From UHGV virus genome UHGV-0346448: DNA of 25,332 bases; one strand, written 5' to 3'. Positions 15,204 to 15,988 of the stretch are shown here, one piece after another. How positions within the stretch are numbered: the stretch's first letter is position 1; the number at the start of each line of letters is the position of its first letter. The translations under genes and the position numbers were made by a program. Below the pieces are notes generated by a model. It did not search any database. It saw only the letters and a list, made by a program, of their open reading frames with translations, and was not told where the DNA came from. The stretch comes from a virus.

Positions 15204-15308
15204 ACTCTTTTGCTGGAATAAATAGTTATTGCGAATAGGTGCTGCTAAATGTTGGTTGCTTGTGTAAAATATAGTGGTAAGGTGTCTTTTTTATAGTGGT
15301 AAGTACGC

Positions 15309-15917
15309 ATGGACTATTTTTACATAGCAACTAAATCGCAAAATCCTTGGGTTAAGTATAGGCCTTTGGCAGTAGGAGATTTAGCTAGCACCTCATTCCC
15401 AAATCCCTTTTTTAATTATTTCTTAAGTTCAAACATCCCTCCAATACCAGTAAATGTTAACGGGCATCTAACTGACTATACGAGAATGCAGTGGCTTTAT
15501 GGCCTAAAGACAGGGTCACTTACTACTAAGTGTTCTGTACAGGATATAGCGGCAGTTGGTCAAGAATTGGCTATGCATTTTTGTAAATATACTAGAGAAC
15601 TGATTTGGGAAGCCGTTCGAGTTGAATATTACCCAAAAAAGCCTTCAAGACAGAAATGCTTATGGGTTTCACAAGGTGAAGAAAGTCTTCACTATTGGAT
15701 TTCGCAGTTGGGATTGGGGGACAATCAGACTGTGTTCAGAGTTGAGTTGGATGGAGTTATACATGAGGCGAGTGATGAACATTTGATGAATGACGATATA
15801 CCGTATGATATTGCCTTAGAAAAAGCTCATAAATATTGGAGTGGTGAAATAGTTGATCCGTTAAAAAAGGAAATACTTTTTGAAGGAAATATGCGGATTC
15901 TAGAGCACATTTTATAG
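15309..15917 (+). CDS. AT-rich moron at the lambda bor position: hypothetical 202-aa protein, family not recognised
   Basis: ORF between Rz and the HNH/terminase genes; AT-rich; preceded by an AT-rich region with an 11-bp direct repeat ATAGTGGTAAG at 15271-15281 and 15292-15302; followed by a short hairpin and T-run. Confidence 0.65.
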   Translation: MDYFYIATKSQNPWVKYRPLAVGDLASTSFPNPFFNYFLSSNIPPIPVNVNGHLTDYTRMQWLYGLKTGSLTTKCSVQDIAAVGQELAMHFCKYTRELIWEAVRVEYYPKKPSRQKCLWVSQGEESLHYWISQLGLGDNQTVFRVELDGVIHEASDEHLMNDDIPYDIALEKAHKYWSGEIVDPLKKEILFEGNMRILEHIL

Positions 15918-15937
15918 CCGCCTTCTGGCGTTTTTTG
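15917..15937 (+). terminator. Weak terminator after the 202-aa moron
   Basis: Short stem CGCC/GGCG (15919-15922 / 15927-15930) followed by TTTTTT (15931-15936). Confidence 0.35.
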
Positions 15938-15988
15938 TTGCCATCACCATGGACAAACATCATCGTGATGATTGCAGGAAAACTTTAA

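Follow-up and report, generated by a model that had tools for sequence, protein, structure and literature searches.

A DUF2441 gene of the ADP-ribosyltransferase-fold superfamily as a probable solo cargo moron in the bor/iss slot of an E. coli prophage

Virus genome UHGV-0346448, whose 25,332 nt constitute the window analyzed here, reads as an E. coli prophage with a lambdoid early region and a contractile tail. Between its lysis and packaging genes lies a variable cargo slot (15204..15988, + strand), which is wholly replaced in related prophages and carries here a gene (15309..15917, +) that starts with ATG and encodes a soluble protein of 202 amino acids (23.4 kDa, pI 5.6). We assign this protein to the DUF2441 or BC2332-like family, which has the fold of ADP-ribosyltransferases (ARTs). 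The cassette proper spans approximately 15204–15960 and holds this one open reading frame (ORF) only. To its left, a lambda-type holin gene (13924–14259) is followed by an endolysin gene and then by the i-spanin gene Rz (14736..15203, +; Pfam Phage_lysis, E 1.8e-29), the last gene of the lysis cassette and the left flank of the slot, with the o-spanin ORF Rz1 (14956–15162, +; lipobox VVGC) embedded in it. The right flank is an HNH endonuclease gene (15989..16339, +; Pfam HNH, E 2.3e-16), downstream of which lie the genes for a P27-type TerS and then TerL (Pfam Terminase_4, E 1.2e-20; RefSeq annotation). The GC content is 0.38–0.40 across 15100–15999, 0.48–0.52 in the lysis genes and 0.55–0.62 in the HNH and terminase genes; in every allele of the cassette gene that we compared, it is 0.38–0.41. 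The AT-rich 202-residue ORF that the original prediction placed between Rz/Rz1 and the HNH/terminase block is present as described, within an island of 38–40% GC.

The start codon at 15309 is the earliest one past the preceding in-frame stop, and the resulting N terminus aligns with the starts of homologs (MDYFYI/MDFFYI). Against two alleles that are 77–78% identical, the dN/dS of the ORF is 0.089 and 0.069, and synonymous sites are saturated between the window gene and more distant alleles. Across 24 homologs with identities down to 31%, 25 residues are invariant. These comparisons indicate that the ORF is a real gene under strong purifying selection.

The protein matches Pfam DUF2441 (PF10386) over residues 90–179 at 44.2 bits (cut-off 25; E 2.5e-11) and PHROG 9842 (phrog_9842) over its full length (E 3e-131), an entry whose function is given as unknown. 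RefSeq names it 'DUF2441 domain-containing protein' (WP_000384431.1), flanked by 'lysis protein' and 'HNH endonuclease', and all of the relatives that we sampled (105/105) match DUF2441 and no other Pfam family. The solved structure 2AUA, that of BC2332 from Bacillus cereus, is matched with an E value of 3e-9 by the single sequence and of 1e-32 over the full length with a profile; the family profile retrieved nothing beyond 2aua from the PDB sequences. On this evidence, membership in the DUF2441 or BC2332-like family is practically certain, and the protein can no longer be called unrecognized, as it had been on first reading. A hidden Markov model search of 1.84 billion representative proteins returned at least 1,427 family clusters at 50% identity (E ≤1e-3). 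Nearly all members are single-domain proteins of approximately 200 residues, and no domain fusions were found among the longer ones.

Structural comparison yielded a full-length match to 2AUA and revealed the split β-sheet of the ART fold, with comparison figures of 5.8 for CC0527, 5.5 for ArtA, 5.3 for TreTu and SopF, 5.1 for Tpt1, 5.0 for DarT and PARP15 and 4.7–4.8 for RES/ParT/MbcT. The nearest characterized structural neighbor of DUF2441 is the small-molecule ART Arr. DUF2441 has been assigned to the ART clan of Pfam (PMC7955679), and SCOP lists a 'BC2332-like' family within the ADP-ribosylation superfamily (PMC3000352). BC2332 itself is a structural-genomics protein of unknown function, whose pocket (2aua) was paired in a ProFunc analysis with catalytic sites from diphtheria toxin, exotoxin A and cholix toxin (PMC3024214). 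The family is, therefore, already catalogued, with a solved structure, and DUF2441 is a branch of the ART-fold superfamily. A BFVD fold search returned uncharacterized phage proteins only. Neither the profile searches nor the structure searches linked the protein to a late or structural family of phages, an outcome that the original prediction had regarded as contrary to it. The 202-residue protein has no hydrophobic segment, signal peptide or lipobox, which argues that it is cytoplasmic, unlike the secreted ART toxins borne by phages.

We read residue conservation across 166 family sequences. The nearly invariant residues that are also present in the window protein are N32, R96, E97, E101, R104, P112-S113-R114, W119, W130, G149, Y176-W177, G179, E188 and G193, of which E188 is invariant in 165/166 sequences. 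In hhalign comparisons, the family pattern 'f-y-H-I ... v-G-D-x-i-x-t-G' falls on FYHGT...IGDLLTTG of Arr, so that position 5 of the family aligns with the NAD-binding His19 of Arr in what is a weak match (numbering from the 2HW2 alignment). The Arr-2 sequence used is identical to PDB 9IBA at 149/150 residues. Between the family and Arr, hhalign gave short local matches only and no global alignment. The link to Arr comes mainly from the fold match, and the sequence links are weak. The position of Arr Asp84 is occupied by D, N or S across the family and by Ser here. Two candidate triads can be proposed: Tyr/His5, W119 and E188, in the style of H-Y-E enzymes, or R114, S155 and E188, in the style of R-S-E enzymes.

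The slot itself exchanges its contents. In an O157:H7 prophage (O157 AC-3) with the same Rz and HNH genes, the gap carries iss, a bor homolog, on the minus strand, and in the MS21324 prophage it is filled by other DNA. In a three-way alignment of prophages that share Rz and HNH, homology ends at the Rz stop codon and resumes at the HNH ATG. The original prediction had proposed a moron at the lambda bor position, and both the iss gene in the same Rz–HNH gap and these breakpoints bear it out. Among homologous loci, the gene follows at least three unrelated lysis cassettes (lambda S/R/Rz; holin_8 with holin_3_7 and GH19; Phage_lysozyme types) and precedes three packaging types (HNH with P27-type TerS; lambda Nu1/A; Hendrixvirinae-type TerS). 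The identical cassette (≥99% identity) occurs in 50/5,426 complete E. coli genomes, once per genome and always on the chromosome; the 1.5-kb query from Rz to HNH has at least a partial match in 4,414 genomes, in most of them to just Rz or just HNH. Among the carriers are an O25b:H4-ST131 strain and numerous other isolates from humans. No INPHARED phage matched the cassette in megablast, and tblastn found only gp27 of Cronobacter phage phiES15, at 41% identity. Homologs also reside outside phages, in islands and at ordinary chromosomal sites of Bacillus, Flavobacteriia and Nitrospira.

Other contents of homologous loci were recorded alongside. The slot cargo of L002 (7010-9543) comprises a 180-residue protein of unknown type, a 485-residue protein with a sub-threshold GT2-like match (E 5e-4) and an IraP-like gene. 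In L004 (6733-7263, −), a 176-residue protein beside the DUF2441 gene has weak HEPN matches (HEPN_LA2681 and Csm6-HEPN; E ~0.002–0.003). Some Bacillales homologs, in Fictibacillus and Piscibacillus, are split or truncated (L023:5767-6384 and L036/L057:5833-6264; 132 + 72 residues and 143 residues) and may be pseudogenes.

Immediately 3′ of the gene, starting 1 nt past the stop codon, is a hairpin that resembles an intrinsic terminator, (C)CGCC-TTCT-GGCG followed by six T (15918..15936, +). It pairs CGCC (15919–15922) with GGCG (15927–15930) around a TTCT loop, and the T-run occupies 15931–15936. Its folding energy of −6.6 kcal/mol lies under the threshold of the terminator scan, which, hence, did not call it. 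The pattern CCGCC-N4-GGCGG-T5-7 stands directly after the stop codon in seven other alleles, whose proteins are 41–78% identical to the window protein, so that the terminator occurs in eight alleles counting that of the window; in one allele, the T-run is broken by a single G. The loops vary (TCCG, TTCG, TACG, TTAT and TACA) around a constant stem, and in the window a 1-nt deletion has removed one G from the 3′ arm. Because the hairpin is conserved in DNA whose synonymous sites are heavily diverged or saturated, it is under selection. A terminator is useless to a Q-antiterminated polymerase, and its conservation, therefore, points to transcripts that start inside the cassette. The downstream hairpin and T-run of the original prediction are, thus, present, though minimal, and gain weight from this conservation across alleles.

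A further conserved stretch, GTTGCCATCACCATGG (15937..15952, +), follows the terminator and travels with the cassette. Directly after the T-run, 16 nt of the form (G/A)TTGCCATCAC(C/A)ATG(G/A) are kept among cassettes with proteins ~44–55% identical to the window protein; L006, L012 and L049 read ATTGCCATCAC(C/A)ATG(G/A) after their terminators. In L006, this stretch forms inverted repeats, ATTGCCAT...ATGGCAAT. The 3′ flank may be the cassette end, a recombination joint or a second hairpin.

Upstream of the ORF, 105 bp of AT-rich DNA (15204..15308, +) contain a direct repeat of 12 bp, exact in both copies, which are 10 bp apart and, thus, have a period of 22 bp, approximately two helical turns. 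Copy 1, TATAGTGGTAAG (15270..15281, +), begins with TATAGT (15270–15275), a candidate −10 element 39 nt before the ATG; copy 2, with the same sequence (15292..15303, +), covers a Shine–Dalgarno (SD)-like GTGGTAAG (15296–15303) 5 nt before the ATG. Nowhere else in the window do exact copies of 12 nt or more recur within 40 nt, and TATAGTGGTAAG has no third occurrence even with up to two mismatches allowed. A comparable repeat arose in 22/400 dinucleotide shuffles of the whole window (5.5%) and in 10/4,000 shuffles of the cassette alone. The repeat is, therefore, unusual, but no more than borderline when one takes into account that its place was freely chosen. No such repeat or equivalent was found upstream of 13 related alleles, including those that are 77–78% identical, whose corresponding segments are approximately ATATGGTATC and AATTGGAAG; L002 and L042 have TTGGAAG and ATGGAAG at the position of copy 2. 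The exact 12-mers, thus, look like a recent local duplication or homogenization by conversion of two segments that were already similar. The 11-bp repeat of the original prediction (15271–15281 and 15292–15302) is, therefore, real, but its length is 12 bp and its second copy is shifted by one base.

Upstream sequences are otherwise unalignable between alleles. A −10-like hexamer (TAnnnT, with at least 4/6 matches; background of 34% per 7-nt window) lies −39 to −33 from the ATG in 11/12 non-redundant alleles (P 5e-5; ~0.004 corrected for 85 windows), and in Cronobacter phage phiES15 TATAGTGAT stands at −39, as TATAGT does in the window. The terminator scan found no terminator between Rz and the ORF, which suggests that late transcription also reads through the cassette gene. 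In Citrobacter sp. ANG330, the homolog (L013) lies outside any phage operon, after an opposite-strand gene and among chromosomal genes, and there it must, therefore, be transcribed from a promoter of its own. An indirect hint of expression in the lysogen comes from Salmonella, in which RNA sequencing of ordinary cultures detects a DUF2441 gene (PMC9867438). RNA structure at the 5′ end, including a 14-nt inverted repeat over the start codon (15220–15233 and 15306–15319), was considered and rejected as no better than in shuffled sequences (z 0.16), and no Rfam match was found within the cassette. Because iss occupies the same slot, the breakpoints are precise, the lysis and terminase flanks vary, the GC content is foreign, the terminator is conserved and the −10-like hexamer is positioned, we consider it likely that the region at ~15204–15960 is a moron with independent transcription.

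We searched for partners by clustering four genes on each side of the gene at 42 loci. No neighbor is conserved except the lysis genes. Among the families most often matched by the two genes on each side at distant loci, there was no macrodomain or ADP-ribosylglycohydrolase (ARH). No antitoxin-type family (macrodomain, Xre or other) recurs beside distant members, HTH_3 being found in 3/98 neighbors, and neither Pfam nor PADLOC families are consistently enriched among these 98. Individual loci have neighbors of other kinds. In Citrobacter sp. ANG330 (L013:3493-5618), a small island flanked by chromosomal genes holds a complete Septu system (PtuA, E 3e-162; PtuB, E 2e-104) and, ~370 bp downstream of it, a His5-type homolog of 44% identity. 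In the related Phytobacter locus L014, an integrase fragment adjoins the DUF2441 homolog. In a metagenomic contig of the Logan assembly (L010:6767-8272), the gene stands beside an HD-CE + HATPase_c_3 protein and Cro/C1-type helix-turn-helix genes, a context that resembles a mobile or defense island. The Gifsy defense gene gipd474 (PMC12724215) was considered as a match and ruled out, as its product, a ParA-like ATPase encoded close to the immunity region, is unrelated.

We propose, with a probability of roughly 0.55, that the gene is a solo cargo moron in the bor/iss slot whose product is an ART-type enzyme made in the lysogen. Transcription would start ~27 nt before the ATG, at a weak promoter whose −10 element is the TATAGT of repeat copy 1, and would end at the hairpin that follows the ORF, giving low-level expression in the lysogen; during lytic growth, Q-modified late transcription from upstream would also cross the gene. 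The protein would bind NAD+ and either transfer ADP-ribose to a target or cleave NAD+ as an NADase, acting alone. The target would be foreign or conditional, or else non-essential, such as a component of an infecting phage, the end of a nucleic acid or, as for Arr, a small molecule; because no immunity partner is needed, it is probably not an essential host protein. That the protein is a catalytically active NAD+-using enzyme we hold to be slightly short of an even chance. A role in defense or phage exclusion is plausible but rather unlikely. Broader still, and unlikely in our estimate, is the notion that DUF2441 as a whole is an unrecognized class of single-gene ARTs of prophages and islands. 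Its prophage copies would be expressed in the lysogen from their own promoter, framed by a −10 element and a terminator that move with the gene, and would protect the lysogen by ADP-ribosylating a foreign target (phage nucleic acid or protein or, in the manner of Arr, a small-molecule toxin or an antibiotic); Tyr5 would be a working variant of the NAD-binding His.

Several observations weigh against the proposal of an ART-type enzyme made in the lysogen, and some of them favor its rivals. On the side of expression, the upstream region has no sigma-70 consensus promoter on the + strand at 9/12 matches or more, the best relaxed match being CTGCTA-17-TAAAAT (15242/15265) at 8/12, and no credible −35 element precedes the ORF; because both are missing, any promoter of the cassette is weak or activator-dependent. 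The terminator stem in the window has just 4 bp. The gene lies on the late-operon strand in 15/15 of the enterobacterial alleles listed, in 12 of them with lysis genes directly upstream on the same strand, and in phiES15-type phages it starts 35–40 bp past the spanin stop codon. Together with the lack of a terminator between Rz and the ORF, this arrangement also fits a late-expressed accessory enzyme, transcribed by Q-antitermination only and acting in the lytic phase to counter NAD-linked or other defense, modify a host factor or exclude a superinfecting phage. Yet such a gene would have no use for the terminator kept directly past its stop codon, and late expression alone leaves the positional conservation of the −10-like hexamer, the homologs in non-phage islands and chromosomes of Bacillus, Flavobacteriia and Nitrospira and the lysogen-expressed cargo (iss/bor) otherwise found in this slot as points to its disadvantage; counter-defense genes are, moreover, usually early rather than late. 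We, therefore, regard exclusively late expression as rather unlikely. On the side of activity, position 5 is His in 134/166 family sequences and Tyr in 20/166, among them that of the window and those of most of its relatives in enterobacterial prophages, and a His-to-Tyr change of this kind is also found in the inactive PARP13. Sequence similarity between DUF2441 and Arr is marginal (pairwise hhalign, E 0.018 for Arr-2 by itself and 0.003 for the Arr family profile), and of the candidate triad residues only position 5 is tied to Arr, through this weak match to His19. For no DUF2441 protein did the searchable literature yield a biochemical or genetic test, an activity or a phenotype. The ORF matched no PADLOC v2 family at E ≤1 and no NCBIfam family at E ≤0.1, and the association with defense islands is weak, with Septu at one locus and type I restriction–modification at two among ~26 distant loci.

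The Tyr5 substitution raises the alternative of a pseudoenzyme, a catalytically dead ART fold that binds NAD+, ADP-ribose or a modified ligand or that serves as a decoy or sensor. Position 5 is the only family-conserved position that differs in this subclade, and it aligns with Arr His19; moreover, the gene has no immunity or antitoxin partner and no sign of needing one. Nevertheless, the other family-invariant residues are kept, including E188 and R96/R104/R114, at a dN/dS below 0.1. His5 and Tyr5 are also intermingled among close relatives, with His in P0012, P0016 and phiES15 and Tyr in the window protein, P0002 and P0008, which suggests interchangeable residues and the same function, and the hydroxyl group of Tyr could still form a hydrogen bond to the NAD ribose. 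A dead enzyme, thus, appears improbable. We give similarly little credence to the direct repeat as a two-site operator for a DNA-binding regulator of the cassette. Its two exact copies, 22 bp apart, do lie on the likely −10 element and on the SD sequence, as the original prediction of a regulator site over the promoter and ribosome-binding region had it, and they are rare in shuffles of the cassette; the overlap, therefore, stands. The regulator site fares worse, as 0/13 related alleles have the repeat, alleles of 77–78% identity have diverged at both positions, 5.5% of whole-window shuffles yield such a repeat, the cassette encodes no regulator and the 12-mer recurs nowhere else in the window. 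Local duplication or conversion of similar segments is the simpler reading. Finally, ART folds are shared by the toxins of toxin–antitoxin (TA) or abortive-infection pairs such as DarT, ParT, RES and MbcT, and the window gene could in principle encode one. Gene context largely refutes this, as the cassette has a single ORF, no adjacent gene is conserved at the 42 loci, no antitoxin-type family recurs beside distant members and PADLOC gives no match; we consider it very improbable.

The window carries further cargo outside the slot. A second AT-rich gene (12436–13827, +; GC 0.36–0.42) lies between a DUF1133/Q-like gene (11718–12296) and the holin gene, the position that stx occupies in Stx phages. 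It encodes a 463-residue P-loop ATPase (AAA_16, E 8e-10; weak ORC/Cdc6 and STAND-like matches) that RefSeq names 'ATP-binding protein', that matches phrog_6841 (E 6e-103; PHROG function unknown) and that has PADLOC matches at the P-loop level only. It is a candidate defense-type NTPase, and it is not the same as the ParA-like GiPD474 (PMC12724215). A hok/sok type I TA locus occupies 337–662 (−), with an Rfam sok RNA at 487–662 (117 bits) and a Hok-like ORF (…MKQQKAMLIALIVICLTVIVTALVTRKDLCEVRIRTGQTEVAVFTAYEPEE) inside 337–549 (−). The THO-006 prophage matches the window at 99.3% identity only from 11047 on; 1–11046 is a different mosaic with no more than short, rearranged matches.

If the protein is an active ART in lysogens, a function would be gained for a family of more than 1,400 clusters for which a crystal structure has been available since 2005, and a one-gene cargo function would be added for prophages of clinically important E. 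coli. The compact cassette, with its −10 element, 202-codon ORF and terminator, and its natural swap partner iss offer an easy experimental handle. What is gained here is an annotation and a testable hypothesis: the moron had been correctly spotted, its protein family was already catalogued, and no new type of system is shown.

Among the closest known systems is BC2332 (2AUA, DUF2441), to which the window protein is 23% identical, with the N-terminal His replaced by Tyr. Membership in the family of BC2332 gives no mechanism, and the window gene differs from it as prophage cargo with its own terminator. Compared with Arr and Arr-2 (PF12120; 2HW2, 9IAF and 9IBA), DUF2441 has ~80 additional residues (~30–111, with a long helix at 77–107), and the invariant Arg/Glu cluster belongs to DUF2441; nothing suggests a rifamycin substrate. 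The phage-borne ARTs (T4 Alt, ModA and ModB, the anti-CRISPR AcrIF11 and the prophage exotoxins diphtheria, cholera and ArtAB) have no sequence similarity to the DUF2441 protein and differ in genomic position and timing; the DUF2441 protein lacks a secretion signal, and its R-S-E and H-Y-E triads are candidates only. The ARTs of TA and defense systems (DarT, ParT and RES/MbcT) act in the pairs DarTG, ParST, Xre-RES and MbcTA, whereas the DUF2441 gene has no antitoxin partner and no PADLOC match. Lambda Bor and E. coli Iss are small outer-membrane lipoproteins encoded on the opposite strand, to which the cytoplasmic DUF2441 protein, encoded on the late-operon strand, is unrelated: it matches only DUF2441 in Pfam at E ≤1 and has no lipobox or hydrophobic N terminus. 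In genomic terms, however, they are counterparts, as the DUF2441 gene occupies the same slot, from Rz to the packaging genes, and follows the same moron logic.

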